The translations under genes and the position numbers were made by a program. From Candidatus Spongiisociaceae bacterium (GTDB lineage: Bacteria > Actinomycetota > Acidimicrobiia > Spongiisociales > Spongiisociaceae), in contig OZ241841.1 in assembly GCA_965202665.1 (NCBI GenBank), positions 453,743-517,742 of the forward strand: 64,000 nt of DNA. Direction: 5' to 3'. The notes under the pieces were generated by a model that saw nothing but the letters and a program-made list of their open reading frames with translations, searched no databases and was not told the origin of the DNA. Positions 1,062-60,561 of this stretch are shown here, piece after piece. The stretch's first letter is position 1, and every line of letters begins with the position of its first letter.

Positions 1062-2387
1062 CTAGGGGGCGGGCCCGGCGCGGGCGGGCGGTTTTACGGT
1101 TCTGGTCGAGGGCGGAGGGGCGTTGGGCGGTTTGCTCCGGGGCCGGGTTTGCCATCTTTTTCCATTTTTTTCCAATTCCAGGTTGTGTTCCTGCAACTGC
1201 CGGTGATGGGGCCCGCACAGCAAAGCCAAGTTGTCGATGTCGGTGGGACCCCCGTCGCGCCAGTCCAGCAGGTGATGCAAATCCGTCTGGTGGGAAGAAA
1301 TGTCGCATCGGACGCATCCCCGATCCCGCACCGCGGCGGCCAGCCGTTGCGCGTCGTTGCCCAAGCGACGGCTGCGTCCCAGCCACAGCACCCGCCCGTC
1401 GCCGCCGAAGATAATCCCGCACACGTTGTCGTCCGGGGAGAGGTCCGCCAACAGGGAAGGCGGAACCGGCCCGCTGCCCAAAATCTCGCATGACCCGTCG
1501 GGGCGGGTCCCGTCCAACAACCCCAGGTCGGCCACTACCACCAACTGCGTAACCGCTTTACCCGACTTATTGTCGGGAAGGGGACGCATGGTGTCGGCGT
1601 CCCGGCCGGTCAACAGTTCCACCAAAGCGTCCGCCCGCCGTTGCGGGTTGGTGCGGATGTCATCGGGATGAGCCTCCCCGCCGGAGTCGGCCCGCCGCAG
1701 ATTCTCGGCGTGCAAGTCCAAGGCCTGCCGCACCTGCCCGAACCGGATGGGATCCAACTCGGCGTGCAAGATTCCCATCCCGGTTCCCGGTTCGGTGAAC
1801 ATTTTCACTTTCCGCAGGCGCCGTTGCCGTTCCAGCAGTTTCTCCCCCCGGTCGGCGGAGTGGGCGTTGGCCCACTGCTTGGCCTCCTTGCGGAAATGGT
1901 CCGGGTTGGTTCGGGCGGCGTTCTCCAACAAGTCCCGGTTCTGATCGACCTGCGCCGCCCCGCACTCCCCCGCCGCCGCGGTCAGCGCCGTGGCGTTCTC
2001 CAAAGTGATCTCCCCCGCCTGCAACTTGGCCCGCGTGTTGGGCATCTCCTCCAACTTCTGCGCTACCCGTGAGAGGTGCTTGGCCCCATGGTTGGTCATG
2101 CCCAACTGGTCCCGCAACACATGGTCCGCCCCGGCCCCTCCGTCGGCGCGGCTCAGTTGTCCGGCCAAGTCGCATTTCAAAGAGGACACCTGGGCTTCCA
2201 TCCGTTTCACCGTCTCCGCCAGCTCGCCCAACGCCGCCCGGGACAGGCCCGCCCCCACCTGCCCGCGCAACTCAGCCACGGCGTCGGCGGTGGCGGCCTC
2301 GGCCCGCTGGCAGACCCGCCGCAACTTGTCGGTAATAGGGTTGTGCTGTTTCATAGTGTTCACCATAGTAAATAGAGGGTGTGACAT
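1062..2387 (-). CDS. DUF222 (13E12-repeat) domain protein with C-terminal HNH endonuclease motif
   Basis: 441-aa ORF. The C-terminal ...DIDNLALLCGPHHRQLQEHNLE is the HNH signature, and the N-terminal architecture is typical of actinobacterial DUF222-HNH proteins. Alternative starts are M at 2354 or 2387. Confidence 0.7.
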   Translation of the reverse strand: MSHPLFTMVNTMKQHNPITDKLRRVCQRAEAATADAVAELRGQVGAGLSRAALGELAETVKRMEAQVSSLKCDLAGQLSRADGGAGADHVLRDQLGMTNHGAKHLSRVAQKLEEMPNTRAKLQAGEITLENATALTAAAGECGAAQVDQNRDLLENAARTNPDHFRKEAKQWANAHSADRGEKLLERQRRLRKVKMFTEPGTGMGILHAELDPIRFGQVRQALDLHAENLRRADSGGEAHPDDIRTNPQRRADALVELLTGRDADTMRPLPDNKSGKAVTQLVVVADLGLLDGTRPDGSCEILGSGPVPPSLLADLSPDDNVCGIIFGGDGRVLWLGRSRRLGNDAQRLAAAVRDRGCVRCDISSHQTDLHHLLDWRDGGPTDIDNLALLCGPHHRQLQEHNLELEKNGKRWQTRPRSKPPNAPPPSTRTVKPPARAGPAP

Positions 2388-2436
2388 TTTTGGATTGTAT
2401 AGGGTATAACCGATTAGAGAACTATATTATTCCCAT

Positions 2437-2465
2437 ATTCTACATTATTTAAAAATATCTGTCAA
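2437..2465 (-). promoter_or_regulatory. Sigma70-like promoter (TTGACA-17 bp-TAGAAT) in an AT-rich island, reading toward the HNH gene
   Basis: The reverse complement of 2437-2465 reads TTGACAgatatttttaaataatgTAGAAT. The 2390-2470 stretch is strikingly AT-rich compared with the ~70% GC flanks. Confidence 0.45.
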
Positions 2466-2599
2466 ATCGGAAGATGCCAGTAGTAGGAAAGGGCACAGGA
2501 AAAATCAAGGAACGGCGAGCGGGGGTGGAGGCGCCGATCCCGACCGCCAGTTTCCCGCCATGGGGCTGGCAACGGCTCGCGTTGGGCGGCGGGCTCTAA

Positions 2600-3060
2600 G
2601 AAAACTTTTCGCGTTCTCGAAAAATTTAAAAATTCGGGGTACCCACCCACCCCCCGCCCACCCGCCCATAACATACGGCGATTTTTTGGAAAATTCAAGG
2701 GGGGCGATAGAGATATTTTTCGCGTTCTGGAATACCGCCGATGGCCACCGGCTTCCAGGTCAAGTTCCGCATGGGGCCACAGTGATATTTTTCGCGTTCT
2801 GGAATACCGGGGCCGCGAAGGCAACCGCCTGGGGTGTGCTTTCCGCACCCACCCCAAACATCACGCCACTAGCCGAACCGGAACCGCGAAAGCAACCGCC
2901 AGAAGCATGCTCACCGCACCCACCCTAAACGTTGCGCCGCTGGCTGAACCGGAACCGCGAAGGCAACCGCCAGAAGCATGCTTGCCGTTTAGCCACCACT
3001 TCCTTTCCTCCGTCCGATGAGGCGCAACGCGAAGGCAATCGCCTGGGGCGTACTGCTGTT
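2600..3060. repeat. Degenerate ~70-bp tandem direct repeats, noncoding
   Basis: TTTTCGCGTTCT(G/C)G occurs at 2606, 2718 and 2790. GAACCGGAACCGCGAA(A/G)GCAACCGCCAGAAGCATGCT occurs at 2874 and 2944. GCGAAGGCAA(C/T)CGCCTGGGG occurs at 2815 and 3030. GCACCCACCC(C/T)AAAC occurs at 2845 and 2915. The period is ~69-73 bp. Confidence 0.6.
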
Positions 3061-3084
3061 TCAGCCGTACACCGGGTCAGTGGC

Positions 3085-3150
3085 CGAATGCCTGCTGGGC
3101 GGGGGCGGCGGCCTCGTGGGGGTGTTGCAGGATGTTGTTCCAGATCCATA
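3085..3150 (-). pseudogene. Relic 3'-end fragment of a fourth DUF1156-family methyltransferase copy
   Basis: The reverse complement reads ...IWNNILQHPHEAAAPAQQAFGH*. Compare the paralog C-termini ...[20 protein letters not shown]. The DNA motif GGCGGCCTCGTGGG(G/C)GTGTTGCA..GTTGTTCCAG is shared with the 3' ends at 3177-3226 and 5999-6050. Confidence 0.55.
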
Positions 3151-3157
3151 GGAAGGG

Positions 3158-5536
3158 TCAGGATTGAAAGATTTGCTGGGATGGGGCGACGGCCTCGTGG
3201 GCGTGTTGCAAAAGGTTGTTCCAGGAAACAATCAGCGAATTATAAGCCACCGCATCCTCAGTGCGACCGGCTCCGTTGGCCACCTCATACAGCAAGTAGG
3301 CCAGATGACGGGCGTAGTCGCCCAAACCCGGTCCCGCCCGAGCCAGCAACACCCCGGCCTGGGCATCCGACCTGCCCTGGCGGGCCACCAAATGCTGAGT
3401 GAGCTCCCACACCGTCAACCGCCGATCCTCCGCCGGATCCCACTCCGGATCCAACTCATCCCTGGTCAACAACCGCACTCGGCCCCCTTTGGATTCCGCC
3501 ACCTCCGCCTCCACCACCCCCGACACTGACGTGTTCATCGCCTTCGCCAACGTCTCCGCATCCCCAAACGGACCCGGCTGATGACCGAACTGCCGATACC
3601 AGGTAAGGGCGAACCTGCTGTCGGCATCCAAATCGGTCTCCTCCTGGGACAGGATTTCCTCCAGCACCCCGTTAATCAGAGCCAGGGCGGTGCGTACCCG
3701 CATCGTGGAACCGTCTGCTTCCACCACCCGCTTATACCGGGAGAACACCCGCATACCCGGCCCGATAGCCGACTGCGCCATATCCACCGGCGGGATAGCC
3801 TGCTCCTGCAACAAACCCACCGCCTCCGGCAACTCCTCCCGCAACGCCGCCAAAAACCCACCCCGCGTCTCCAACCGAGCATCCACCCCCCGAGGCCGAC
3901 AAGCCAACACCACCGACGACGACAACGCCGCGGCACCCTCGGCCACCGCCCGATTCGCCATCTCAGTTCGAACCGGCCAAGTCGCAGTAACCTCTAACCC
4001 AGCATCCACCAAGCCCTGCAAAAACGTCTCCCAACCGGTAGATGTTGTTGTCCCCTCTTTTATTTCCTGCTGTTTGAAACCATAAAAAAGGGTTGACGGA
4101 AAGTCGGAATGTTGATTTTGGGCTATCTGTTCCATTACTGCCAACATCCCCGACTCAAAATGTTTCCTCGCGTCATCTTGGGAACCTGCTCTCCAAGTAT
4201 TAGAAACCAACTCATCTTTTTTTGGCGTCTGCAAGGTAGCACACTCATCCGGCCACACATCCGACAGATTATGACGAAGCCACACATAGAAAAAATCAGA
4301 TATATCCGCATACTGAATATTGTCATAGTAGGGAGGATCAGTGCAAACAAGCGGTCTCTCCACTTCAACCAACCGAGCTGCCGCATCCCGTTGTAAAATC
4401 TCCCCAATATCGGAAGCTGGAAAATGAGCAACAGCCTTCGCTACCCAGTTCACCTGCCCCAGCCAGTTACCAGTTGATCCAGAAAATGGATTAACCTCAG
4501 CATAATCCCAAATCATCGCTATTGCCTGCCTTCCGAATGTACAACGGATTTTTTCGGATCTGTTTTGCCAACTGCACACTGAGGACCAGTAATCGGCGCA
4601 CCTATCAACTGCGAAAGCCAAATAGGTAACCAACGCATCAGCATACGCAACTACGCCCAACCCACCATCACGAACCCTTGTTCCATCATCAATCCACCCA
4701 ACATTACGAATATCCTGCTCAACCTTCTCTCTCAATTCGGATAACAAATCGGAAAAGGTCGTCAAAGCAACCAACTGACGAGAAGTAAACAAATCACCCC
4801 ACTCGGTCATACCATACGCAGGAACACTGTCAGTAGCTTTTCCTTGTAACTTACCAGATGGCCTCCATCGTGGCTCCGGAACATCCGGTTTTTCAGGTGG
4901 CGATACGTACTCGCGACCTCTGCTCCCTTCAACTACAGCACCTATACATTCTTCCCTCATCAATCCACGCTGACCCTGCTCCCTTACATATCCGAGCGCA
5001 ATCGGCGCTCCGGTCGCCACGCAGATGCCTCCTCCCCTGGCGATGGTGCCTCCCTTTGGAGTTCCGCCTTCCCTCACCTGGTAGGTCACTGTTTGGGTGT
5101 CCCGGTTCACAATCGGTTCTACCCACACCACCGGCTTGCCCGGCTTGTTGCGCAGCACCCCAGATTTGAGCAGGGGCACATGGCCTTTCCAGGACGGGTC
5201 GGGGGACTGGACGGTCCTGGCCCACAACCAGGCAATCACCGTTTTGCCATCCACCTTTGGGTATAGATGGCCTATTTGTTCCCACGCCCGCTCCCGCATC
5301 CACTCTCCGTAGTATCTGATGTCCTCGGCTAAACCCTGCGCACCCTTCCAAGTCTTCAACCCCGACTCCCCACGGCTGACGGGATTGACCGGGGGCCGTC
5401 CCGCGAAGCGAGGCGGAATCTCCACCATCGCCTTTGTTATCAAGACGGGGACGGGGTTTAGATCGCCCCCGTAAGCGGACAGGCCCAACCGTTGGGCCTC
5501 TAGTGGAATCGTCCCGCCGCCGCAGAACGGGTCCAA
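3158..5536 (-). CDS. DNA methyltransferase, DUF1156-family paralog 1, catalytic body (motif I DPFCGGGT, motif IV DPPY). It is separated from its N-terminal domain by a frameshift inside a (GT)12 tract.
   Basis: 792-aa ORF starting [15 protein letters not shown], then ...[22 protein letters not shown]. The frame stays open upstream through the dinucleotide repeat as (HT)n. It is 90-99% identical to copies 2 and 3 at both ends and divergent in the middle. Confidence 0.8.
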   Translation of the reverse strand: MDPFCGGGTIPLEAQRLGLSAYGGDLNPVPVLITKAMVEIPPRFAGRPPVNPVSRGESGLKTWKGAQGLAEDIRYYGEWMRERAWEQIGHLYPKVDGKTVIAWLWARTVQSPDPSWKGHVPLLKSGVLRNKPGKPVVWVEPIVNRDTQTVTYQVREGGTPKGGTIARGGGICVATGAPIALGYVREQGQRGLMREECIGAVVEGSRGREYVSPPEKPDVPEPRWRPSGKLQGKATDSVPAYGMTEWGDLFTSRQLVALTTFSDLLSELREKVEQDIRNVGWIDDGTRVRDGGLGVVAYADALVTYLAFAVDRCADYWSSVCSWQNRSEKIRCTFGRQAIAMIWDYAEVNPFSGSTGNWLGQVNWVAKAVAHFPASDIGEILQRDAAARLVEVERPLVCTDPPYYDNIQYADISDFFYVWLRHNLSDVWPDECATLQTPKKDELVSNTWRAGSQDDARKHFESGMLAVMEQIAQNQHSDFPSTLFYGFKQQEIKEGTTTSTGWETFLQGLVDAGLEVTATWPVRTEMANRAVAEGAAALSSSVVLACRPRGVDARLETRGGFLAALREELPEAVGLLQEQAIPPVDMAQSAIGPGMRVFSRYKRVVEADGSTMRVRTALALINGVLEEILSQEETDLDADSRFALTWYRQFGHQPGPFGDAETLAKAMNTSVSGVVEAEVAESKGGRVRLLTRDELDPEWDPAEDRRLTVWELTQHLVARQGRSDAQAGVLLARAGPGLGDYARHLAYLLYEVANGAGRTEDAVAYNSLIVSWNNLLQHAHEAVAPSQQIFQS

Positions 5537-5567
5537 GACTTTGATGTTTTGGAGGGCTTTTAGATGG

Positions 5568-5921
5568 TTAGTGTGTGTGTGTGTGTGTGTGTGTTACTAC
5601 ACTATTTATGATTTCTTGACGAGCCTCATCCAAAACATCCTGATCGTTGCTACTCTCCCAACGCACCAACCGTTCCAGAACGCCGAACAGACGCTTGCGC
5701 TCAATCTTCTGGTCTTCCACCGTTGGGAAAACATCCGGACGGGAAGACGGATCATCCACCAGCGACGCCCACAACACCGCCCGCGCCGCCGCCAACGGAC
5801 GACGGGCCCACCACAAATGCAAAGTCGAAGGATGGCCGTGACGAATAGACTTCTCGCGGGCCGACTCCCGGCTTATCACCTCCAACGGCAACGCCACCTC
5901 AATAAGTTTCCTTTTTTTCAA
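5568..5921 (-). CDS. N-terminal DUF1156 domain fragment of methyltransferase paralog 1 (terminates right after the (GT)12 tract)
   Basis: ORF 5568..5948. [58 protein letters not shown], then ...[12 protein letters not shown]. The probable start is the TTG at 5921, 4 nt after GGAGG. The product is encoded as (TH)n from the repeat, then TAA. Confidence 0.7.
5569..5592. repeat. (GT)12 dinucleotide simple-sequence repeat inside methyltransferase paralog 1 (inter-domain linker)
   Basis: gtgtgtgtgtgtgtgtgtgtgtgt at 5569-5592. A repeat length congruent to 1 mod 3 (for example 11 or 14 units) would fuse 5568..5921 with 3158..5536 into one ~920-aa ORF. Confidence 0.9.
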
Positions 5922-5985
5922 GCAACCTCCCAGAGCAAAGCCGTGCAAAAGCCTACCTGCACCACATCCGGGGGGTGGGGCAGGA

Positions 5986-8688
5986 TTAGAGGGTTTGCTG
6001 GAAGGGGGTGGCGGCCTCGTGGGCGTGTTGCAGGATGTTGTTCCAAGACAGGACCAGCGAATTGTAGGCTACCGCGTCCTCGGTGCGGCCGGTGCTGTTG
6101 GCCGCCTCGTATAACAGGTAGGACAAATGACGGGCTTGGTCGCCCAAACCGGGTCCCGCCTTCGCCAGCAACCACCCGGCTTGGGCGTCCGACCTGGCCT
6201 GGCGGGCCGCCATATGCTGAGTGAGCTCCCACACCGTCAACCGCCGATCCTTCGGCGGATTCCACTCCGGGTCCAACTCGTCCCTGGTCAGCAACCGCAC
6301 CTTGCTCCCCTTGGACTCCGCCACACCGGCATCCACTACCCCGGACACCGACGTGTTCATCGCCTTCGCCAACGTCTCCGCATCCCCGAACGGACCCGGC
6401 TGATGGCCAAACTTCTTATACCAAGTCAGGGCGAACCGGCTGTCGGCATCCAAATCGGCCTCCGCCGTTGACAGGACTTCTTCCAGCACCCCGTTAATCA
6501 GAGCCAAAGCGGTGCGCACCGGCATTGTGGAGCCGTCCGCTTCCACCACCCGGCGATACCGGGAGAACACCCGCATGCCCGGGCCGATAGCCGACTGCGC
6601 CATATCCACCGGCGGGATGGCCTGCTCCTGCAACAACCACACCGCCTCCGGTAACTCTTCCCGCAACGCCGACAAAAACCCGCCCCGCGTCTCCAACCGC
6701 GCATCCACCGACCGAGGCCGACACACCAACACCACCGACGACGACAACGCCGCGGCGCCCCTGGCCGCCGCCCGATTCGCCCTCTCGGTTCGAATCGGCC
6801 ATGTGGCGGTTACTTCTAAGCCGGCATCCACCAAACCCTGCAACATCTCCCAGCCGCCTGATTTCACGTCCTGCTGTTTGAAAGCGCAAAAGATCGTCGC
6901 TGGAAAGTCAGCGTGTTGATTATGGGCTATCTGTTTCATTACCGCGGACATTCCCGACTCAAAATATTCTCTTGCTTTATCTTGCGAACCCGCTCGTTGA
7001 ACATTAGCTACCAGTTCTTCTTTCTTTGGCGTCTGCAAAGTGGCGCACTCTTCCGGCCACACATCCGACAGGTTACGACGAAGCCATACATAGAAAAAAT
7101 CGGAAATATCCGCATATTGAATGTTATCATAATGGGGCGGGTCTGTACAAATAACCGGTCTCTCCACTTCAACCAATCGGGCTACCGCATCTCCTTGCAA
7201 AACCTCCCCGGTATCAGAACCCGGCAAATTGGCAACGGCCTTTGCTATCCACTCCACCTGCCCCATCCAGTTACCGGTTGACCCAGAAAACGGATTACCC
7301 TCAACATAATCCCAAATCATCGCTATTGCTTGCCTTCCAAATGTACCGCGAATGATTTCCCTACTGCTATTCCAACTGCACATTGAAGACCAATAATCGG
7401 CGCACCTGTCAACTGCGAAAGCCAAATAGGTTACCAAAGCATCAGCATAGGCGACCACACCCGACCCGTCATCCCGAAGCCTGATTGCATCATCAACTCC
7501 ACTCACGCTGCGGGCGTCTCGCTCAACCATCTCCCTCATCTCGGATAGCAAATCAGAAAAGGTCGTCAGGGCAACCATCTGACGAACGGTAAACAAATCC
7601 GCCCACTCATTTATCCCATACAAGGAAACATTGCTACCTGCTTTTCCTTGTAACTTACCGGATGGCATCCATCGCGGCTCCGGAACATCCGGCATTATGG
7701 GCGGAACGACATATTCACAACCGCCACTACCTTCAACCACTGCGCATACGCACGCTTCCCCCATCAACCCCCGCTGACCTTGCTCTCTTACATAATGGAG
7801 CGTAATGGGGGCTCCGGTCGCAACGCAGACGCCCCCGCCCCTGGCGATGGTGCCTCCTTTAGGCGTTCCGCCTTCCCTCACCTGAAAGGCCACCGTTTGG
7901 GCATCCCGATTTGCTATTGGCTCCACCCACGCCGCCGGTTTGCCCGGCTTGTTGCGCAACACCCCGGATTTGAGCAGGGACACATGGCCTTTCCAGGCCG
8001 GGTCGGGGGACTGGACGGTTCTGGCCCACAACCAGGCGATCACCGTTTTGCCATCCACCTTCGGATACAGACGGCCGATACGCTCCCAGGCTCGCTCCCG
8101 CATCCACTCCCCGTAAAAACGGATGTCCGCGGCCAACCCCTGCGTCCCCTCCCAAACCTTCGAACCCGACTCGGCAAGGCGGGAAGGATTGACCGGCGGC
8201 CGTCCCGCAAAGCGGAACGGGATCTCCACCATCGCCTTCGTTATCAAAACCGGAACCGGATTCAAATCGCCCCCGTACGCGGACAGGCCCAAACGTTGGG
8301 CCTCCAACGGAATCGTCCCGCCCCCGCAGAAGGGGTCCAACACGTTGGGCAAATCATCCCCGCACGACGCCCCAATCTCGGCCTTGGCTTCAGCCAACAC
8401 CTCCTGATTGTTGCTGTTTTCCCACACCACCAAGCGTTCCAAAATGTCAAACAGGCGCTTGCGCTCCCTCTTCTGGTCTTCAACCTTAGGGAACCTGCCG
8501 GGATGGGCGGACGGGTCGTCCACCAGCGACGCCCACAACACCGCCCGCGCCGCCGCCAACGGACGGCGGGCCCACCACAAATGCAAAGTGGAAGGATGGC
8601 CGTGCCGGATGGATTTCTCCCGGGCCGACTCCCGACTGATCGCCTCCAACGGCAACGCCACCTCAATCAGTTTTCTTTTCAGATTCAA
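5986..8688 (-). CDS. DNA methyltransferase, DUF1156-family paralog 2 (intact, no SSR in linker)
   Basis: 900 aa, starting (M)[42 protein letters not shown], then ...[15 protein letters not shown]...[22 protein letters not shown]. The start is the TTG at 8688, preceded by GGGAGGTGG. The linker is [17 protein letters not shown] with no repeat. Confidence 0.85.
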
Positions 8689-8751
8689 ACCACCTCCCAG
8701 AGCAAACCGCCAAAAGCCTACCCCGCATCACATTCCAAGGGAAGGTCGGGA

Positions 8752-11541
8752 TTAGAGGGTTTGCTGGACGGGGGCGACGGCCTCGTGGGCGTGTTGCAGA
8801 AGGTTGTTCCAGGAAACAATCAGCGAATTGTAAGCCACCGCATCCTCAGTGCGGCCAGCACTGTTGGCCACCTCATACAGCAAGTAGGCCAGATGACGGG
8901 CATAGTCGCCCAAACCCGGTCCCGCCCGAGCCAGCAACACCCCGGCCTGGACATCCGACCGGCCCTGGCGGGCCACCAAATGCTGAGTAAGCTCCCACAC
9001 CGTCAACCGCCGATCCTCCGCCGGATCCCACTCCGGGTCCAACTCATCCCTGGTCAACAACCGCACCTTGCCGCCCTTAGATTCCGCCACCTCCGCCTCC
9101 ACCACCCCCGACACCGACGTGTTCATCGCCTTCGCCAACGTCTCCGCATCCCCAAACGGACCCGGCTGATGCCCAAACTGCCGATACCAGGTAAGGGCAA
9201 ACCGGCTGTCGGCATCCAAATCGGTCTCCTCCTGAGACAGGATTTCCTCCAGCACCCCGTTAATCAAGGCAAGGGCGGTGCGCACCCGCATCGTGGAACC
9301 GTCCGCTTCCACCACCCGCTTATACCGGGAGAACACTCGCATACCAGGTCCGATAGCCGACTGCGCCATATCCACCGGAGGAATGGCCTGCTCCTGCAAC
9401 AACCCCACCGCCTCCGGCAATTCTTCCCGCAACGCCGCCAAAAACCCACCCCGCGTCTCCAACCGAGCATCCACCGACCGCGGCCGACAAGCCAACACCA
9501 CCGACGACGCCAGTAACGCTTTAGTCTTAGAACCCAATTTTCCAGGCCTTTCAGTCCGAATAGGCCAAGTCGCAATTACCTGCAAACCAGCATCCACCAG
9601 ACTTTGCAGAAACGTCTCCCAACCGGTAGATGTAGTCTCACCAGATTTGATCTCCTTCTGTTTGAAAGCATAGAAAATCGTCGACGGGAAATCGGGATGT
9701 TGATTATGGGCTATCTGCTCCATCACTTTAAACATTCCTGACTCAAAATGTTCTTTTGCTACTTCTTTGGACCCTGCTCGCCAACGATTAGCAACTAACT
9801 CCTCTTTCTTTGGCGTCTGTAGTGTTGAACATTCATCTGGCCATACATCCGACAGGTTACGACGGAGCCATACATAGAAAAAATCTGAAATATCGGCATA
9901 AAAAATATTATCATAATAAGGCGGATCCGTACTAATAACCGGTCTTTCCACCTTACCTAACTGTGCTACTGCATCTCGTTGCCAAATATCACCAAACGGC
10001 GAACTTGGTAAATGAGCAACGGATTTAGCTACCCATTCAATCTGGCCTAACCAATTACCAGTTGAAAAAGAGAATGGGTTGGCTTCCGCAAAGTCCCAAA
10101 CCATACCTATTACCTGCCTACCAAAAAGGCTTGCGATTTTTTCGGCACCGTCCTGCCATCTTGATAAGCTATTCCATCGGTCAGTACACCTATCTATAGC
10201 AAAAGCTAGGTATGTTATAACTGCATCTGCATAGGCAATATTACCAATCCCACCATCCCTGAAACCTCTTTTCTCATTAGTCAGTCCCCTGTGAATTGCG
10301 TCTTCCTCTACCATCGCTCTTATGTCTAATAGTAAATCGGAAAAGATATTTAAAGCAATCAACTGGCGATTAGTAAACAAGTCTCCCCACTCAATCATCC
10401 CGTACAAAGGAACATTACCTGAGGCCTTGCCATGCAAAGTACCAACAGGCATCCAGAAAGGTGCCGGAATATCGGGTATTACAGGCGCAGAAACATACTC
10501 ACGACCTCTGCTTCCTGCAACTACAACCCCTATACATACTTTTCGTATTAATCCTTTCTTGCCTTGCTCCTTAATATAATCGAGCAAAATCGGGGCACCG
10601 GTCGCAATGCAGACACCTCCTCCCCTCCCAATAGTGCCTCCACTCGGCGTTCCACTTTTCCTTACTTGGTAGATCACTGTTTGGGTATCCCGGTTCACAA
10701 TTGGCTCTACCCACACCACTGGCTTGCCCGGCTTGTTGCGTAGCACCCCGGATTTGAGCAAGGGCACGTGGCCTTTCCAGGACGGGTCGGGGGACTGTAC
10801 CGTCCTAGCCCACAACCAGGCGATCACCGTTTTGCCATCCACCTTTGGGTATAGATAACCTATTTGTTCCCACGCCTTCTTTCGCATCCACTCTCCGTAG
10901 TATCTGATGTCCTCTGCTAAACCCTGCGCTCCCTTCCAAGTCTTCAACCCCGACTCCCCACGACTGACAGGGTTGACCGGCGGCTGTCCCGCGAACCGAG
11001 GTGGGATTTCCACCATCGCCTTGCTGATTAGTACTGCAACAGGGTTTAGGTCACCCCCATACGCGGAGAGGCCCAAACGTTGGGCCTCCAGTGGAATCGT
11101 CCCTCCCCCACAGAAGGGATCTAAAACCTTGATTTTTGATAGAATCTCTGCTAGGTTATCATTAGCTGTTGTGTTGTGTTGTGTTGTGTTGTGTTGTGTT
11201 GTGTTGTGTTGTGTTGTGTTGTGTTGGCTATTTGCGATTTCTCTTCGGGCTTGATCCAACACGTCCTGGTTGTTGGAATTTTCCCAAACCACAAGCCTTT
11301 CCAGGATTCCGAATAGTCTTTTTCTCTCGACCTTTTGATCTTCTGCGGTGGGGAACTGGTCGGGGTGGGAGGACGGGTCATCCACCAGCGACGCCCACAG
11401 CACCGCCCGCGCCGCCGCCAGCGGGCGGCGGGCCCACCATAGATGCAGGGTGGAAGGGTGGCCGTGCCGGATGGCTTTCTCGCGGGCGGATTCCCTGCTT
11501 ATGGCCTCCAGGGGCAGGGCTACTTCTATCAGTTTCTTCAT
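8752..11541 (-). CDS. DNA methyltransferase, DUF1156-family paralog 3 (in-frame (GTGTT)12 linker repeat)
   Basis: The ORF track gives 8752..12360. The real start is the ATG at 11541 ([40 protein letters not shown]); upstream of that the frame overlaps rsmI. The linker is ...[45 protein letters not shown]. Confidence 0.85.
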   Translation of the reverse strand: MKKLIEVALPLEAISRESAREKAIRHGHPSTLHLWWARRPLAAARAVLWASLVDDPSSHPDQFPTAEDQKVERKRLFGILERLVVWENSNNQDVLDQARREIANSQHNTTQHNTTQHNTTQHNTTANDNLAEILSKIKVLDPFCGGGTIPLEAQRLGLSAYGGDLNPVAVLISKAMVEIPPRFAGQPPVNPVSRGESGLKTWKGAQGLAEDIRYYGEWMRKKAWEQIGYLYPKVDGKTVIAWLWARTVQSPDPSWKGHVPLLKSGVLRNKPGKPVVWVEPIVNRDTQTVIYQVRKSGTPSGGTIGRGGGVCIATGAPILLDYIKEQGKKGLIRKVCIGVVVAGSRGREYVSAPVIPDIPAPFWMPVGTLHGKASGNVPLYGMIEWGDLFTNRQLIALNIFSDLLLDIRAMVEEDAIHRGLTNEKRGFRDGGIGNIAYADAVITYLAFAIDRCTDRWNSLSRWQDGAEKIASLFGRQVIGMVWDFAEANPFSFSTGNWLGQIEWVAKSVAHLPSSPFGDIWQRDAVAQLGKVERPVISTDPPYYDNIFYADISDFFYVWLRRNLSDVWPDECSTLQTPKKEELVANRWRAGSKEVAKEHFESGMFKVMEQIAHNQHPDFPSTIFYAFKQKEIKSGETTSTGWETFLQSLVDAGLQVIATWPIRTERPGKLGSKTKALLASSVVLACRPRSVDARLETRGGFLAALREELPEAVGLLQEQAIPPVDMAQSAIGPGMRVFSRYKRVVEADGSTMRVRTALALINGVLEEILSQEETDLDADSRFALTWYRQFGHQPGPFGDAETLAKAMNTSVSGVVEAEVAESKGGKVRLLTRDELDPEWDPAEDRRLTVWELTQHLVARQGRSDVQAGVLLARAGPGLGDYARHLAYLLYEVANSAGRTEDAVAYNSLIVSWNNLLQHAHEAVAPVQQTL
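11166..11225. repeat. (GTGTT)12 pentanucleotide simple-sequence repeat inside methyltransferase paralog 3
   Basis: ctgtt followed by 11 gtgtt units, 60 nt in total, encoding (QHNTT)4 in frame. A change of one or two units gives a frameshift. Confidence 0.9.
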
Positions 11542-11555
11542 CGGGGCAACCTTAG

Positions 11556-12380
11556 TTACTTGGCCCGGAGCGTGGCCTGATATAGGGCCCGGCGGCTTAG
11601 GCCTGTGTTTTCGGCTACTTGGCGCACTGCGTCCGACATGGCCGCGCCCGCCTCCATTCGGGACAGCACTTCGGTTACCGCTTCGTCCAGCGGGGCTTCC
11701 CCGGCCTCCGCCCCCTCGACGACCAGGGTGAATTCGCCTTGGGGCTTTTCCGACCCCCATTTTTCCTCCGCCTCCTCCAGCGTGCCCCACCATATTTCTT
11801 CGTGCATTTTGGTCAGCTCCCGGGCGGCGCACGTCCGCCGGTGGCCGCCCAGGGCTTCGGCCAAACTTTCCAGGTCGTCCAACAGGTGGTGGGGGGCGAT
11901 GAACAGCACCATCGGGCGTTCCTCCCCGGCCAAGGATTCCAGGCGCCGGGCGCGGTCGCCTCCTTTGCGGGGCAGAAACCCTTCGAACGTGAACCGGTCG
12001 GCGGCGAACCCGGATACGGCCAGGGCGGCCGGGACGGCGCAGGGGCCGGGAATCACCGACACTTCCGCCCCGGCCCGCAGGGCGTCCGCCACCGCCCGGC
12101 GCCCCGGATCGGCCACCCCCGGCGTCCCGGCGTCGGTGATCAGGGCCGCCGTCCCCCCCGCCTCCAACATGCGCGCCAGCCGCTCCGACTTCTGCGCTTC
12201 GTTGCCCGCGTAATAAGATTCGGGGCGGACGGACGCCCCGCAATGTTCCAGCAAAATCCGGGCCCGGCGGGTGTCTTCGGCGAACACCGCGTCCGCTTCC
12301 CGCAACGTTTCCAGCAGGCGGGCGGAAACATCCCCCAGGTTGCCGATGGGGGTGGCGCACAGAATCAGCCGGCCGCTCAT
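11556..12380 (-). CDS. rsmI: 16S rRNA (cytidine1402-2'-O)-methyltransferase RsmI
   Basis: 274 aa. MSGRLILCATPIGNLGDVSARL...ITDAGTPGVADPG...TFEGFLPRKG...TKMHEE is the RsmI/tetrapyrrole-methylase fold. The start is the ATG at 12380. The ORF-track N-terminal extension is spurious. Confidence 0.85.
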   Translation of the reverse strand: MSGRLILCATPIGNLGDVSARLLETLREADAVFAEDTRRARILLEHCGASVRPESYYAGNEAQKSERLARMLEAGGTAALITDAGTPGVADPGRRAVADALRAGAEVSVIPGPCAVPAALAVSGFAADRFTFEGFLPRKGGDRARRLESLAGEERPMVLFIAPHHLLDDLESLAEALGGHRRTCAARELTKMHEEIWWGTLEEAEEKWGSEKPQGEFTLVVEGAEAGEAPLDEAVTEVLSRMEAGAAMSDAVRQVAENTGLSRRALYQATLRAK

Positions 12381-13927
12381 TCTTCGGCCCTCATCTGGGC
12401 GGCGGCCCGTCTTCCCGCCTCGGCGTCGTCGGCCACCACCAAAGTCAGCGTCTCCCCCTGTCGGCCCAGCAGGGCGTACACGTCCCCGCCCGGCCATTCC
12501 AAAGTGGTGCCCGACAGGGTGGAAATCCCCACCGGCAACCCGCCCACCAGGTCCACCAGGGCGGCGGCCATGCGCGAGGCGTCCGCGAAAGAGTCGCCCC
12601 GGTAGCGCACCGCCCACACCAGATGCCCCCGCTCCGGGTTCCACAGCAGTTGGAACCGGTCGCCCCCCCATCCCCGGGCGGCGTCGGCGGCCTGCGCGAA
12701 CCGGCCTCCGCCGCCCAGCAGGGCCCGCCATCCCCGTTCCCCCCAAGTTCCCTCCTCCGCCGTCTCGTAGCCTTCCAACGCCACCGCGAACGGCTCCAGC
12801 GGGACGGGCGGCTCCATCCGGTTGTACAGGTCGGGGTGCAGCACCTGTTCGGTGGAGACGGGCGGGGCGGCCAAAGCCCGGTCCAACCCGGTCGTCCCCT
12901 CCTGCCGGTAAAGATGCAGGGCCAGGGCGGAACCGGCCGCCGTCGCGAACCGGGCCTGCTCCGCCAGGAAGGGCGGCCCCTGGGCGAACCCGGGCCGGGC
13001 GTCGGCCGCGGCCTGCTCGGCCAGGGCCGCCCGCCGCTCCTCCGGCAGGGCGTCGGCGTACAAGGTCTGAACGAGGGCCGCCTCCCCGGCCAGCAACGCC
13101 CCCACGGCAGCCGCCCGGTCGGGATCGCCGTCTTCCGCCAAAGCCGAATGTTCCTCCACCGTTTCCGGATAGTGCAGATGGGCCAGCATCCGGGTCAAAG
13201 CCCCCGCCAGGGCCCACTGCTGATACTCGTCCAACCCGTCCAAGCCCTCCCCCTCCCCCTCAGGTTGCGCCCCCTCCGGCGACGCAGCGTCTTCCCCTTC
13301 CCCCTCAGGTTGCGCCTGCGGCGGCGGGTCTTCTTCCCCGTCCGGCGGCTCCTCCCCCTCCCCCGCTTCGGCCTCCTCGGCGGGTTGCGGGGGGTCGGGG
13401 GTCAGCGGGATCACCACCCGTCCCCGTTCCGCCTGGTAGAAGGGCAGTTCCGGGGTGCGCCCCGTTTGAAAAGAACGGTAGAAGGATTCCAGGTCGGCTT
13501 CGGGGGGGAGCAGGTTGAACAAGTCCAGAAAAGCCCGCTCATAGTCTTCCGGGACGGTTGGGGGGGCCTCCGCCGCAGGTTGCGTCACCACCAACGGGAG
13601 GGAAGGAAACTTTCTCCCCCGCAACTGTTCGACGCGGGCGGTCAACTCGTTCACCTGTTCTTCCAAAGCACCGGGCAGGGGCGGACGGGGGGGGACGGTG
13701 GTGGTCGTGGTAGGCGGGAGGGTGGTGGTGGTGACGACGCGGGTGGCAGGGGGGACGGTGGTGGCGACGGAAACGGCGGAGGTGGCGGCCGGCGCGGCGG
13801 ACGGGGGCGGGGCGGTGGGCCCGGCGGTTTCGGAACCGCACCCGGCGACTACCGCCAGCAGGACGGACAGTATCGTCGCCCGCAACGCGGGGCGGTTGAA
13901 TATCACGGGTTTCACGGGCGATGCCAA
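12377..13927 (-). CDS. Putative lipoprotein of unknown function (Pro/Glu-rich linker). Its stop overlaps the rsmI start in an ATGA overlap.
   Basis: 516-aa ORF with signal peptide and lipobox (LLAVVAGCGSE), a (T/P)-rich segment, and an acidic PEGEGE low-complexity insert. High-GC codon usage is consistent with a real gene. Confidence 0.5.
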   Translation of the reverse strand: MASPVKPVIFNRPALRATILSVLLAVVAGCGSETAGPTAPPPSAAPAATSAVSVATTVPPATRVVTTTTLPPTTTTTVPPRPPLPGALEEQVNELTARVEQLRGRKFPSLPLVVTQPAAEAPPTVPEDYERAFLDLFNLLPPEADLESFYRSFQTGRTPELPFYQAERGRVVIPLTPDPPQPAEEAEAGEGEEPPDGEEDPPPQAQPEGEGEDAASPEGAQPEGEGEGLDGLDEYQQWALAGALTRMLAHLHYPETVEEHSALAEDGDPDRAAAVGALLAGEAALVQTLYADALPEERRAALAEQAAADARPGFAQGPPFLAEQARFATAAGSALALHLYRQEGTTGLDRALAAPPVSTEQVLHPDLYNRMEPPVPLEPFAVALEGYETAEEGTWGERGWRALLGGGGRFAQAADAARGWGGDRFQLLWNPERGHLVWAVRYRGDSFADASRMAAALVDLVGGLPVGISTLSGTTLEWPGGDVYALLGRQGETLTLVVADDAEAGRRAAAQMRAEE

Positions 13928-13991
13928 ACCAACAAGAGGAGGGTAGCGTTCCCCAACCCGTAAACGGGGTTGCGGTTGCCCGTATCATAGA

Positions 13992-15335
13992 ATGGAAACC
14001 GTGCGGATAGCGCTTATCTCCACCTACGAACTCGGCCATCAGCCGGTTCATCTGGCTTCGCCGGCCGCCGCCCTGCGCCGCCGGGGGCACCAGGTGGCCG
14101 TCTTGGATCTGGCGGTGCAGCCCTGGGACGAAGGCTTGGCAGAATGGGCGGAGGGGGTTGCGTTCAGCGTTCCCATGCACACCGCCCTGCGCCTGGCCAC
14201 CCGGGCCGCCCGCCGCCTGCGGGAGGAGCGCACCGGTTTGCCGATCGCCGCCTACGGCCTGTACGCCCCGTCCGCCGAAGACGACCCGGCGTTTGACCGC
14301 GCCATCGGGGGGGAATACGAAACGGGGCTGGCGGAATGGGCGGAGGGGATAGGCCGGGGCCGGGCGGAGGCGGGGGCCTCCGTCTACCGGGGGCGCACGG
14401 TTTTCGAAGTGCCGGACCGGACCGGCCTGCCCTCCCTGGACCGCTACGCCCGGCTGGAAACGGGGGGCGTCCGGCGGTTGGCGGGGGCGGTGGAAAGCGG
14501 CCACGGATGCCGGCACCGTTGCCGCCACTGCCCGTTGCCCGCCGTCTACGACGGGCGGTTCCGGGCCGTTCCCCGGGAGACGGTCCTGGCCGACATCGGG
14601 CAACTGGCGGAGGCGGGGGCGGAGCATATTACCTTCGCCGACGCCGACTTTTTCAACGGCCCGCAACATTCGTTGCGCATCGTTCGGGAAATGCGCCGCC
14701 GCTGGCCCCGTCTCACCTTCGACGCCACCGTCAAAGTGGAGCATCTGCTGGTTCATTCCGGGCTGTTGGGGGAGTTGCGGGACAACGGGTGCCTGTTCGT
14801 AGTGTCGGCTTTTGAAAGTCTCAACGACCGCATACTGGAGATTTTGGACAAGGGGCACACCGCCGCCGAAGCGGGGGCGGCGTTGCATCTGGTTCGGCGG
14901 GCCGGGCTGGAAATCCACCCCACCTGGCTGCCGTTCACGCCTTGGACGGAGATGGGGGACGTAGCCGACATTTTCGCTTTTGTGGCGGATCACGACCTGG
15001 TGGAAATCACCGACCCGGTGCAACTGTCCATCCGGCTGTTGGTTCCCCGCCGGTCGTTGCTGGCCGACCACGCGGAGTTTGCGCCCCACCGGGGGGAATA
15101 CGACCCGGAGGCGGCCACTTACCGATGGCGCTCCCCCGACCCGGGGGTGGATGAGTTGGCCGAGCGCCTGGCGGCCATCGCGGAAGAGGGGACGGGCCGG
15201 CCGCCCCGGGAAACTTTTACCCGAATGCGGAGGGCGGTGCGGGAGGCGGCCGGTGGCGACCGGCGTTTGGCGGAGGCCATTCCCGGAGGAGCGACGGAGG
15301 GGAGGCCGCGGCTAACCGAGCCGTGGTTCTGCTGA
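13992..15335 (+). CDS. B12-binding-domain radical SAM protein
   Basis: 447 aa. CRHRCRHCP is a CxxxCxxC radical-SAM cluster motif. The N-terminal region (IALISTYELGHQPVHLASPAAALRRRGHQVAVLDL) looks like a B12-binding/Rossmann domain. Confidence 0.6.
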   Translation: METVRIALISTYELGHQPVHLASPAAALRRRGHQVAVLDLAVQPWDEGLAEWAEGVAFSVPMHTALRLATRAARRLREERTGLPIAAYGLYAPSAEDDPAFDRAIGGEYETGLAEWAEGIGRGRAEAGASVYRGRTVFEVPDRTGLPSLDRYARLETGGVRRLAGAVESGHGCRHRCRHCPLPAVYDGRFRAVPRETVLADIGQLAEAGAEHITFADADFFNGPQHSLRIVREMRRRWPRLTFDATVKVEHLLVHSGLLGELRDNGCLFVVSAFESLNDRILEILDKGHTAAEAGAALHLVRRAGLEIHPTWLPFTPWTEMGDVADIFAFVADHDLVEITDPVQLSIRLLVPRRSLLADHAEFAPHRGEYDPEAATYRWRSPDPGVDELAERLAAIAEEGTGRPPRETFTRMRRAVREAAGGDRRLAEAIPGGATEGRPRLTEPWFC

Positions 15336-15499
15336 GCGGAACCCACCGCGGACCAGTTAGGTTCGCTAACCCCAACCTAAAACCGGCCCCGCCGTTTCCC
15401 CCGCCCGCATCTCGGCCCTAAACATCCGAAAAATATTTTCCGGTTTTGGACGCGGCGGGTTTAATCCTGTGATAACGTAGAGGAATAAGGGCAAGCGAG

Positions 15500-15781
15500 A
15501 TGCACCAGCAAACCAACCCAATGTTTGAAACACCGCCAAAGATAGCACTGTGGGCAGTCGTAACATTACTGTTAGCAGGTTGCGCTAGTGCCTCCAACAG
15601 CTCCTCTGCGTCCACCATCAACGATGGGATTGTTCCATTGTATTTGGAGGAGGTGGTTCCGCCGTGTGTTCCCACTGAGTTGGAACCTGATCCTTGTCCG
15701 CCGGATTTACCTGCTCATATTGTAGAATCTAACCATCAGGGGCTTGCTGCCGTGCTTATGCGTGGTTCCTTCCTTCAATGA
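15500..15781 (+). CDS. Lipoprotein signal-peptide ORF (probable N-terminal part of the following surface protein, separated by a frame change)
   Basis: MHQQTNPMFETPPKIALWAVVTLLLAGCASASNS carries a lipobox LAGC. It ends at 15781, where GC content drops abruptly. Confidence 0.4.
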   Translation: MHQQTNPMFETPPKIALWAVVTLLLAGCASASNSSSASTINDGIVPLYLEEVVPPCVPTELEPDPCPPDLPAHIVESNHQGLAAVLMRGSFLQ

Positions 15782-25777: not shown

Positions 25778-28700
25778 TTATGAGCTGGCGCCGGCGTCGT
25801 CGTTGGTGGGGGCTTGGTTTATTACTCTTACGAAGAAAGATGCCATCTGGGCGCGGGTTACCGGGTTGTTGGGGCAGTACCTGAGGGGGGGCGTGGTGGT
25901 GCATCCTCTGGTTACTTCGCTTTCGGCTATGCCTTCGATAGCCCGCACCACGGCCGCGTCCAGGTTGGCGGTGTCGGCGAACAGGTTTTGCGATTCGGTT
26001 ACGGCTTGGATGTGGGGGAAAGCGGCGACCATCATCACGGCCATGTCGGCTCGGGTTACTATGCCCCGGGGGTTGAAGTTCCCATCGTCTAGTTGGAAGG
26101 CCCCGATGCTTACCAGCCAGTCGGCGTAGGGGCGGTAGCTGGCGTCGGCGGGGACGTCGGCGATTTCTATGCCGGTGGGAATTTGGATGGGCCAGCGGGG
26201 GTTGACGGCCCGGTAGATGAAAGTGGCCATTTGCCTGCGGGTGATTTGGGCGCTGGGGCAGTATTTGGTGGGATCGTTGGCGTCGCATCCGACGGTTATT
26301 CCCCATTCGGCCATCAACTCGATGTTTGGTTCGTGGACGCTGCCGTCGTCGTCGCAGAACCGACCCTGGCAGGCCACCGGCGCGGGGGGCGCCACCGGAG
26401 CGACGGGTGCGGCGGGACCGGCCGGGGGCGGGGCCCCTCCTCCGGCGGGGGGCGGGGCTCCTCCGCCTCCGCCTCCTCCACCACCTCCACCGGCGGCGGG
26501 GGGCGGCGCGGCCGGAGGCGGCGCGCTTCCACCCCCACCTCCTCCTCCTCCACCTCCTCCTCCACCACCTCCTCCTCCACCACCTCCGGTGGGTGCGCTT
26601 GGTGTGCTGGTTGGCGGCGGCGGTGGGGGTGTGTATGTGTTGGCGGGAATGGTGAGGGCGGCGGGGGTGATGGTAAATCCGTCGGCGGCGCCGGTTATGT
26701 TGATTCGTTCGGTTGGTTCTCTGGGTATTTGGTCGGTTTTGATGTTGATGGTGAAGGTTCCGGAGCCGGATGATGCCGCGGGGCGGATATTTATGGTGGT
26801 GAGCTGGCTGGTGATTTGGTAGTCGTCGTTGGGGGTGGCGGTGCTGTCGGGGCCGGGGATGGTTATAGCCACGGAAGTGGCTTCAAACCGGGTGGTGGAG
26901 CCGTCCAGCCGGGCGGTGACGGTAACCCGACGGTTGGTTTCTCCTTCAGATAGGCTGGCGGAGGGGCCGACAGTGAGGGTGATGCCGGTGGGTGGATCGT
27001 CGTTGTCTTTGATAGTAAATGCCACGGGTTCGATAGCGATCCCAGCGGAGGTTCCGGTTATTTGTATGGTTTCATCCGGTTCGTCGATGCTGTCATCGGT
27101 GATGGGCAGGCTGAGGGTTCGGGTGGCGCTGTTTTGATTAGCGGAGATGGTCAGCGGGGTGAGGGCGGGGGCGGTGTAGTCGTCTCCGGCGACGGCGGTT
27201 CCACCGAAGGCCAAGGTTACGGTGTGGGCGTTGGGAAGCGTTTCCGTGCCCGGGTAGGCGGCTTGCAGGGTTACGGACGTGCCGGTGTCCCCTTCGGTCG
27301 CTTCAGTTGTTGGGGTGAGGGTTAGCGTGACGGTCAGGTCGTCGTCGATGATGGTGAGGGTGTCTTGCGCGATAGTGAAACCGGCGAGCGTCCCACCGGC
27401 AACGGTTAGCGTTTCCGGCCCCTCGAAGGCGTCGTCGTTATATGTTCCGTCGGTTTTGAGCAGGAAAGTTGCGGTTCCGCTGGTTTCGTAGCCGGAAATT
27501 CGCACGTTGAAGGCATCCACCGTTTCATAGTCGGTTCCCTCAGTTGCTTCCCCAGTAGCCGTTTTGCCGACCACGATGGGTACGAAGGTAGCGGCGGAGC
27601 GGGTGGCGGTACCCTGGAAAGTGGCTACCACCCGCACCCGAATCTCTTGGTTTTCGTGGGCTTGGGTGAGGTGTTCCCCGCTGCTGTCGGCTCGGGTGCT
27701 GTGCAGGGAGAGGGTGACAGCGGTAGGAGGAGCGTCGTTATCGTTCAAAGCCAAAGCGACGGCTACCGTGTGATAATCCACGTTGTTGATGGTTACTTGA
27801 CTGCCGTTGATGACTATCCGTCTCGCCGGTTCATCGACGTTGTCGTCGTTCACCGTGACTTGGATGTCGACGTAGCCGGTTTTAGTACCGGCGGGGATGG
27901 TGATGCCGGTGTCGTATCCGGAGGGAGTTGAGGCTGGTCGGGAGGGCCAAACTATCCGGTAGTCTTCCCGGTTCGTCCAAACGTTGTTGGAGTCCGCGGT
28001 GGCGGTACTGTCCTCGTCTATCTCCAAACCCACTACCACACCCCCGGTAGGGGCGTTCACCGGCAGGGTAGCGGTAACCCGCACAGTGGTTGTTCCGCTG
28101 TTTTCCCCCAATGCGGACAGGGCGTTGTTGTTGGAGGGGTTGGTTAGGGCGAGGGTGATGCCGCTGTCCGCAATGTTGATAGTCGTAGAATCGGAGGCGG
28201 CCGTTCCGGCGACGGTGGCCGAACCGCTGATTTTCACCGTTTCCGCAGTAGTTTCCGCGTCAGTATCAACCCGGGCGGTCAGCTGAAACGACCCCGTATG
28301 ATGATGCTGCCCAGCGGGAATGCGGATAGTGAACGAGTTGCCCGTCTGGTCAGTGCACACATCTTCAGTCATCGACTGAGAACACGCTGTCGCCACCGTA
28401 GCCCCGTTGGTGTCCCCGGCCGCTATTGTTACCGTCACGTCAGTGTTGGTCGCCAGCGCGGAGGAGGTCGCTCCGGCGAACCCGGCGGTTACCGTTACGT
28501 TGTGGGCGCTGGCGCTTTCCGTCACCCTCCCCGGCGAGGCGGTTACCTCCAAAGCGGTGTCGCTGGCCCCGATAGTCAACGTGTCCGGGGTAATCCCCAC
28601 GCCGCTGTTCACCGACGTCCCGGCGATCCTGAACGTTTCCGCCAGCTCGGTTATCGCATCGTCTGTTATCGCTAATCCGGTTAGGTTGGTCCAGGCGCTT

Positions 28701-32953: not shown

Positions 32954-33004
32954 CACCCAACCTCCATCTTTCGCTTCCACCCGTATCAGGGCCGATTACG
33001 AAAA

Positions 33005-33032
33005 ACGCTACCCCCCCCCCCCAATTTGTCAA
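33005..33032 (-). promoter_or_regulatory. Promoter-like element of paralog A: TTGACA-aatt-G12-TAGCGT (16-bp spacer)
   Basis: The + strand reads acgcta C12 aatt tgtcaa. It lies ~52 nt upstream of the start codon. The same element precedes all five paralogs with G-tract lengths of 11-13. Confidence 0.5.
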
Positions 33033-38636: not shown

Positions 38637-38687
38637 CACCCAACCTCCAATCCTCCACACGGCGCCGCGAACCGGCACCCTACGCAA

Positions 38688-38714
38688 ACGCTACCCCCCC
38701 CCCCAATATGTCAA
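38688..38714 (-). promoter_or_regulatory. Promoter-like element of paralog B: TTGACA-tatt-G11-TAGCGT (15-bp spacer)
   Basis: The + strand reads acgcta C11 aata tgtcaa. It is a variant with the duplicated -35 region TTGACTTGACA. Confidence 0.45.
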
Positions 38715-45926: not shown

Positions 45927-45982
45927 CACCCAACCTCCATCTTCGCTTCCGGTCCAACCCGTAAACGGGACCGATGCGAAAA

Positions 45983-60504: not shown

Positions 60505-60561
60505 CACCCAACCTCCATCCTTCGCTTCCGGCCCAACCCGTATCAGGACCGACTACGAGAA

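Follow-up and report, generated by a model that had tools for sequence, protein, structure and literature searches.

DNA methyltransferases switched by repeats have been described above all in pathogens adapted to a host, and in Type I and Type III systems. In the window studied here, that is, the whole stretch of 64,000 nucleotides that was analysed, a methyltransferase gene is divided into two reading frames at a perfect dinucleotide repeat. The gene, designated copy 1, is one of three methyltransferase paralogues arranged in tandem and co-directionally on the minus strand. The question raised by this locus is whether copy 1 is a dead gene or an intact gene held out of frame by a reversible switch. 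We favour the second answer: the tract is probably the switch of a contingency (phase-variable) gene that is currently OFF, and we assign this reading a probability of about 0.8. The host is an uncultured high-GC Acidimicrobiia bacterium. Its GAPDH shares 92% identity with the GAPDH of L019, the genome of one of the relatives compared below, and about 75% with those of Acidimicrobiia MAGs, including Candidatus Spongiisocius.

The AC tract and the reading frames of copy 1

The features of the array and its neighbours are as follows, in the order in which the minus strand is read.

11556..12455, minus strand: rsmI (16S rRNA methyltransferase), conserved upstream of the array, with which it is probably co-transcribed
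8752..11541, minus strand: methyltransferase copy 3, 929 aa, intact (ON), HmaB E = 0, starting 14 nt after rsmI
11167..11226, minus strand: (CAACA)12 repeat of copy 3, (TGTTG)12 on the plus strand, at the same linker position as in copy 1, in frame, encoding QHNTT four times
5986..8688, minus strand: methyltransferase copy 2, 900 aa, intact, with the canonical repeat-free linker and DPPH as motif IV
5926..5931, minus strand: GGGAGG, putative ribosome-binding site of copy 1; the short intergenic stretch around it is conserved with that upstream of copy 2
3158..5921, minus strand: methyltransferase copy 1, 921 aa with 13 repeat units, linker (AC)12, split (OFF)
5568..5921, minus strand: N-terminal fragment of copy 1, DUF1156 domain (PF06634 E = 2e-30; HmaB E = 9e-44)
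5571..5594, minus strand: (AC)12 simple sequence repeat, 12 perfect units, the putative frameshift switch in the inter-domain linker of copy 1
3158..5594, minus strand: C-terminal reading frame of copy 1 (HmaB E = 1e-264), with motif I DPFCGGG, a variable centre, motif IV DPPY and a conserved C-terminal helical region; stop at 3158
1062..2387, minus strand: DUF222-HNH endonuclease gene, downstream of the array

On the plus strand the tract of copy 1 is a perfect (GT)12 at window positions 5571-5594, and as the gene lies on the minus strand, the tract reads (AC)12 there. The preliminary description had recognized this 12-unit tract, which is real, but had placed it 2 nt too low, at 5569-5592. 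With an i.i.d. model of the window's base composition, the number of 12-unit tracts of this kind expected in 64 kb is 7e-8. The likely start of copy 1 is the TTG at 5921 (MKKRKLIEV...), and an alternative in-frame TTG is present at 5948 (ORF 5568-5948). The N-terminal DUF1156 reading frame (Pfam E = 2e-30) ends in a TAA stop directly after the repeat. The C-terminal frame stays open across the repeat and is preceded there by two stops. The end of the first frame and the openness of the second agree with the preliminary description.

The tract was resized in silico. With 7, 10, 13 or 16 AC units (n = 1 mod 3), the two frames are joined into a single ORF. The product at n = 13 has 921 aa, and the length of about 920 aa anticipated earlier is thus borne out. 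With n = 0 mod 3, which includes the assembled n = 12, a stop lies right after the repeat. With n = 2 mod 3 a second dead frame is entered, which ends in THTLTI and a stop. Every unit number outside 7, 10, 13 and 16 truncates the product at aa 122-132. The frame rule given in the preliminary description, namely that the assembled tract is one unit out of frame and that n = 1 mod 3 restores it, therefore holds, but the examples offered for it, 11 and 14 units, belong to n = 2 mod 3 and fall in the second dead frame. The length of the AC unit is not divisible by 3, and in silico a change in unit number by itself toggles copy 1 between a full-length and a truncated ORF. The first plausible downstream starts in copy 1 are a TTG at LDPFCGGG, which truncates strand beta-1 and is not preceded by a Shine-Dalgarno sequence, and MVEIPPRF, which lies after motif I. 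As none of these preserves both beta-1 and motif I, no enzyme is expected from the 12-unit allele, and copy 1 is classed as OFF.

Apart from the frame, copy 1 is intact. When resized to 13 units, it aligns with copies 2 and 3 from end to end. Additional inactivating lesions, which a closer alignment might have brought to light, were not found: no further stop or frameshift is present in 2.4 kb. The gene has retained DPFCGGG as motif I, DPPY as motif IV and the conserved GGGAGG region for ribosome binding, and the pairwise dN/dS among the paralogues is about 0.17 in all regions and pairs. Over the last ~250 aa, the protein of copy 1 is 96-100% identical to copy 3 and 80-94% identical to copy 2, and over the first 50 aa it is 89-94% identical to its paralogues. 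The first ~300 aa of the paralogues are 75-95% identical, the repeat-bearing linker excepted, and the segment between motifs I and IV is 50-80% identical. At the ends, DNA identity amounts to 79-95%, and no run of identical letters reaches 60 nt. The earlier figure of more than 95% identity at both ends is thus too high, since the DNA ends reach only the values given here and lack long identical tracts (at the protein level the two ends give 80-100% over the last ~250 aa and 89-94% over the first 50 aa). Recent gene conversion between the paralogues of the window was also considered and rejected, because identical DNA tracts of at least 60 nt are absent and because regions with the same protein sequence still show a dS of 0.2-0.4.

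The spacers between the three copies are about 60 nt long, and each contains a conserved GGGAGG. In copy 2 the linker spans 243 nt between the N-terminal and C-terminal flanking motifs, as in most of the DUF1156/HmaB-type family. DPPH replaces DPPY at the catalytic motif IV of copy 2 (5986-8688), and the same replacement is found in L020 gene 2 and L021 gene 2, so that it is conserved in three samples. A 71-bp tandem repeat (2.5 copies, 83% matches) is located at 2806-2982, within the 770 bp that separate copy 1 from the DUF222-HNH gene. An Rfam scan of the window gave no match. A promoter and terminator scan of positions 2300-13000 gave counts not above those of shuffled sequence, and for this reason transcription units are not deduced from it.

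Repeats at the same linker in related genes

The related loci are taken from metagenome assemblies, so that the repeat and poly-G lengths given below are consensus calls and can be wrong. ON and OFF refer to the reading frame of the assembled allele.

L020 gene 1 (rsmI, then methylase): (AC)16, in frame, ON; 921-aa product P0003
L021 gene 1: (CAACA)12, ON
L021 gene 2 (12858-15600): (AC)12, OFF
L021 gene 3: (AC)12, OFF
L022: (CAACA)11, out of frame, OFF
L030: (AC)12, OFF; gene order as in the window (copy-2-like gene, repeat-bearing methylase, DUF222-HNH, tatD)
L019 (syntenic, 3.18-Mb contig): (AACA)10A(AAAC)19, OFF
L023 (different chromosomal site): (CAACC)11, ON
L024 (different chromosomal site): (TC)13, ON
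L027: poly-G12 at 5907-5918 inside the GGG codons of motif I, canonical linker; OFF, 1-2 G restores the frame
L028: poly-G16 at 5906-5921 inside the GGG codons of motif I, canonical linker; OFF, 1-2 G restores the frame
L029: poly-G12 at 6005-6016 inside the GGG codons of motif I, canonical linker; OFF, 1-2 G restores the frame

The canonical Hma-system methylase of L025 also has a G10 tract in motif I, at about 10388-10397, and this tract is in frame. Small ORFs downstream of the L019 gene were considered as a decayed second copy; this was rejected, as they are not related to methyltransferases.

The preliminary description had pointed to related genomes as the place where variation of the tract should appear, and it does appear there: the same linker carries (AC)16, in frame, in L020, and (AC)12 in two genes of L021 and in L030. 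Polymorphism in repeat number, with both ON and OFF states, is therefore seen for two modules, (AC)16 versus (AC)12, and (CAACA)12 in the window and L021 versus (CAACA)11 in L022. Such alternative repeat counts and types, some of them in frame, suggest that the gene can be turned on and off reversibly and is not dead. Switching itself, that is, length heterogeneity within a population, we infer from these assembled alleles. Four of the five sightings of the (AC)n module (the window, L021 twice and L030) have exactly 12 units, including alleles with different flanks; a very unstable tract might have been expected to vary more. JGI metagenomes were also scanned at the DNA level for the linker with an (AC)n tract of variable length, and no match was obtained. 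In full-length relatives the repeats encode linker peptides, as in P0003, P0010 (TQPNP four times), P0011 (SNPIQ three times), P0015 (SLSLSLSLS) and P0029 (RE five times). The search with repaired copy 1 also returned the window's own products P0002 (the 756-aa C-terminal product) and P0004. A search of genome contigs with copy 3 returned only homologues that are 31-64% identical over the best segment.

The repeats are strongly confined to this clade of methylases. As a control, 86 distant homologues, 42-62% identical, were collected from genome and metagenome scans; the metagenome scan at the protein level yielded distant relatives only, at 42-61% identity. Repeats are carried by 14 of the 17 clade genes versus 2 of the 86 distant homologues (Fisher p = 1e-12), and the gene is out of frame in 9/17 versus 1/86 (Fisher p = 9e-8). 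Eight repeat types were found, with unit sizes of 1, 2, 4 or 5 and never 3 or 6; if equal unit sizes are assumed, the probability that no 3- or 6-nt unit occurs among eight types is about 0.04. In 165 kb of clade DNA, the non-homopolymer repeats are confined to these methylase linkers.

The alleles are also mosaic. Over 12 gene copies the central region is 37-80% identical and the ends are 85-100% identical, and chimeric alleles are present. In L021 gene 2 (12858-15600), the 5' part and the (AC)12 linker are ~100% identical to copy 1 of the window, and the body, including DPPH, is ~100% identical to copy 2. L020 gene 1 combines the (AC)n module and the conserved ends with a centre only 37-67% identical to any copy of the window, and L021 gene 3 has yet another centre. 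These chimeric alleles indicate that the switch module and the variable centre recombine among alleles, as they do in families of mod alleles. L021 gene 2 in particular, judged by its composite sequence, speaks for a transfer of the switch module from one paralogue to another through recombination.

Other explanations of the split gene were weighed against these data. The repeat could be a selectively neutral insertion tolerated in a permissive linker, with accidental frameshifts that are purged or endured and no evolved switch. The disordered linker does accept unrelated peptides (THTH, QHNTT, TQPNP, SLSL, RERE). A neutral process, however, should favour the 3- and 6-nt units that keep the frame, and none of the eight repeat types has such a unit (P about 0.04). 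Moreover, diverged alleles and different chromosomal sites have retained long perfect tracts of 11-30 units, and such repeats almost never occur in distant homologues. We therefore consider neutral insertion unlikely.

The unit count may instead be an assembly or sequencing miscount, in which case the true tract is in frame (e.g. 13 units) and copy 1 is ON. The window comes from a single contig of 2.77 Mb, plausibly assembled from long reads, and a consensus repeat length is an error-prone majority call. Nevertheless, exactly (AC)12 was obtained three more times in two other, independently assembled samples (L021 and L030), and dinucleotide tracts of 24 nt are usually well resolved. A miscount is quite improbable for these reasons, and it would alter only the current state of the locus and not its nature.

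Copy 1 may also be a fixed pseudogene, a redundant paralogue that suffered a one-way frameshift in a slippery tract and is heading for decay. The gene could be dispensable, because two other paralogues are intact, and the OFF length (AC)12 is the commonest state (4/5 sightings). The sequence speaks otherwise: a second lesion is absent in 2.4 kb, dN/dS is about 0.17, an in-frame (AC)16 allele exists in L020, and different repeats recur at the same site with units never divisible by 3 and a strong enrichment in the clade. The earlier view of copy 1 as a phase-OFF allele rather than a decayed pseudogene is accordingly supported by the single lesion, the intact motifs, the low dN/dS, the varied repeats of relatives and their confinement to the clade, and decay is considered very unlikely.

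Finally, a leaky 12-unit allele (through ribosomes slipping by -2 or +1, or through slippage during transcription of the AC repeat), or two fragments acting as a split protein, is the least credible account: a -2 shift on (ACA CAC)n would let both tRNAs re-pair perfectly and land in the C-terminal frame, which is open through the repeat, but a stimulatory structure and a known slippery heptamer are absent, programmed recoding leaves no sign despite the adjoining stop, the first plausible downstream starts truncate beta-1 or lie after motif I, and the in-frame alleles of relatives would be unnecessary under recoding.

Enzyme family, fold and neighbouring genes

Copies 1-3 match PADLOC HmaB (E = 1e-264 to 0) and Pfam DUF1156 (E about 1e-30). 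HmaB is the methylase of the Hma system, which was recently reclassified as a Type-1 DUF499-centred BREX-related (BR) system. Members of this family begin with a helical DUF1156 domain and end in HTH-like domains, and between these lies an N6-methyltransferase core in which a recognition insert follows strand 2 (PMC8565338, PMC11232893, PMC12839542). The SAM-binding motif I (FxGxG-like) and the catalytic motif IV, (D/N/S)PP(Y/F), are present as DPFCGGG and DPPY in copies 1 and 3. According to DPPY and the family annotation, the enzymes of the array are predicted to methylate N6 of adenine in DNA. Against NCBIfam NF042963, an equivalog of anti-phage-associated DUF1156 proteins, the intact copies score 106-125 bits, below the curated cut-off of 1000 bits. 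For the one HmaB that has been studied by experiment, neither the infectivity of T4 phage nor the defence mediated by HmaA was detectably affected.

An AlphaFold2 model of copy 3, built from 47 sequences, shows a Rossmann fold with a pLDDT of 83.7 and a pTM of 0.82. In the N-terminal part, the only long stretch with pLDDT below 50 is residues 110-124, which contains the repeat-encoded peptide. This loop is located between helix 92-107 and helix 126-135, and the latter leads into beta-1 (KVLD). As the repeat-encoded peptide falls within this low-confidence stretch, the repeats are placed in a permissive inter-domain loop, which the model predicts to be disordered. A Foldseek search of the PDB with the model gave weak, generic Rossmann matches (E about 0.05), and the closest solved folds are tRNA m2G methyltransferases. 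A sequence-profile search of the PDB gave a tRNA methyltransferase as the sole match, at the motif I region.

In L025 a homologue with the canonical linker, 62% identical, lies between an SNF2-NOV_C helicase and a HEPN-DUF499 ATPase, and this locus is a textbook Hma/BR system. Both partners were therefore sought by tblastn with the L025 proteins in the window and ten clade loci. Neither the DUF499 ATPase (HmaC) nor the SNF2 helicase-nuclease (HmaA) gave a match near the methylases, and PF04465 is absent from the neighbour Pfam lists of the clade loci. Among window ORFs of at least 800 aa, those that encode recognizable genes are only the methyltransferases and the giant genes with SLH domains described below. 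As a helicase and a DUF499 gene are missing from the window and the clade loci, the methylases are orphans within the visible DNA. The enzymes are thus HmaB/BR-type methyltransferases, but a complete Hma/BR system is not present locally.

The clade methylases directly follow housekeeping genes, namely rsmI, the 5-FTHF cyclo-ligase gene or rsfS, and the arrangement of rsmI and then methylase is common to L019-L022. A DUF222-HNH gene is often located 1-3 kb downstream of the clade methylases, at three or more chromosomal sites. In addition to that of the window, the following were recorded.

L019, 14782-16152: DUF222-HNH
L023, 14353-15645: DUF222-HNH
L027, 9436-11085: DUF222-HNH, with a GmrSD_C-like gene between it and the methylase
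L030, 6637-7941: DUF222-HNH

This recurrent gene could be a hitch-hiker on a mobile element or a functional partner.

The window also contains five tandem giant genes (1870-2400 aa) with a signal peptide, Calx-beta and SLH domains.

25778-32980, minus strand: giant gene with signal peptide, Calx-beta and SLH
33075-38687, minus strand: giant gene with signal peptide, Calx-beta and SLH
38856-46010, minus strand: giant gene with signal peptide, Calx-beta and SLH
46093-53241, minus strand: giant gene with signal peptide, Calx-beta and SLH
53365-60507, minus strand: giant gene with signal peptide, Calx-beta and SLH
33011-33022, 38694-38704, 45989-46000, 53305-53315 and 60568-60579: poly-G tracts before the giant genes

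Each giant gene has a conserved TTGACA-(A/T)ATT-G11/12-TAGCGT about 60 nt upstream of GGAGG-ATG, so that the poly-G makes up most of the spacer between the -35 box and a -10 box of the TANNNT type. From this arrangement, the poly-G spacers are candidate promoter-spacer switches for phase variation of a surface or S-layer protein family.

A proposed switch and its place among known systems

In the proposed mechanism, the disordered linker between DUF1156 and the Rossmann core would have repeatedly acquired, in this lineage, repeats with units of a length not divisible by three. Slipped-strand mispairing at replication would then add or remove units, and full-length copy 1 would be translated only at n = 1 mod 3. 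At n = 12 the product would be a DUF1156 stub of 117-126 aa, its length depending on which in-frame TTG is used as the start. Copy 3 would carry an independent (CAACA)n switch that is currently ON, and copy 2, which has no switch, would be constitutive. It is mainly between motifs I and IV that the paralogues diverge, and in this family that segment holds the target-recognition insert, so that the array may yield several heritable and reversible methylation states. With the pentanucleotide switch of copy 3 and a constitutive copy 2, four combinations of methylation specificity would be possible. The consequence of switching would be epigenetic regulation (a phasevarion) or altered interactions with phages and restriction systems.

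The mechanism of switching is already well known from phasevarions and from Streptomyces pglX; the novelty lies in the family of the enzyme, its orphan setting and its host. In a survey of Type III mod genes, unit sizes not divisible by 3 are taken as evidence of selection for switching (PMC5909438). The Type III phasevarions treated there (ModA, ModS) resemble copy 1 in that a repeat inside the ORF, with a unit not divisible by 3, toggles translation when the unit number changes (PMC5909438). Like the present genes, mod alleles are conserved at their 5' and 3' ends and vary in a recognition region at the centre, and several independent switches per genome are possible, as is proposed for the present array. 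Unlike Type III Mod, the enzyme described here is of the DUF1156, BREX-related HmaB type, has no res partner and occurs as three tandem paralogues. Some 115 codons of the gene precede the repeat, which lies in an inter-domain loop, and the host is an uncultured high-GC member of Acidimicrobiia, which also differs from the Type III cases.

In Streptomyces coelicolor, phase variation at the G-tract of pglX is reported to occur at rates of 1e-2 to 1e-4 (PMC4365076, citing Sumby & Smith 2003). PglX (Pgl, BREX type 2) is an actinobacterial methyltransferase of the BREX family switched by repeat length, as is proposed for the enzymes here, and the poly-G tracts of L027-L029 are directly analogous to its G-tract. 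In contrast to copy 1, pglX is one gene of a complete operon for defence and is toxic if PglZ is missing; in the present case partner genes are missing nearby, and the tract of copy 1 is a dinucleotide repeat. The Hma / Type-1 BR system has the same methyltransferase family and architecture as the array (PADLOC HmaB; PMC12839542). Unlike its canonical members, the genes here are triplicated and carry linker repeats, and a helicase or DUF499 gene is absent from the loci. Full-text literature searches found DUF1156 mentioned in five papers, none of which describes phase variation in the DUF1156/HmaB family. The present locus extends the phenomenon to DUF1156/HmaB (BREX-related) methylases, in an orphan setting and in uncultured high-GC Acidimicrobiia.

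The finding has a consequence for annotation. Among the best 120 database homologues, about 30 have 711-797 aa, lack DUF1156 and begin just after motif I. Many such 'truncated' methylases in metagenome catalogues are probably OFF alleles, and not pseudogenes or gene-calling errors.

A wider reading is offered tentatively, and we regard it as possible but doubtful as a whole. In these host-associated Acidimicrobiia, BREX-related (Hma/BR) methylases may have become detached from their partners and multiplied in tandem arrays with different recognition modules, each with its own repeat switch. Together they would form a combinatorial and heritable epigenetic switchboard (a multi-phasevarion), alongside the poly-G promoter switches on five giant proteins of the S-layer type. 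If this reading is true, an uncultured environmental or symbiotic actinobacterium would run the contingency-locus strategy in the style of pathogens.
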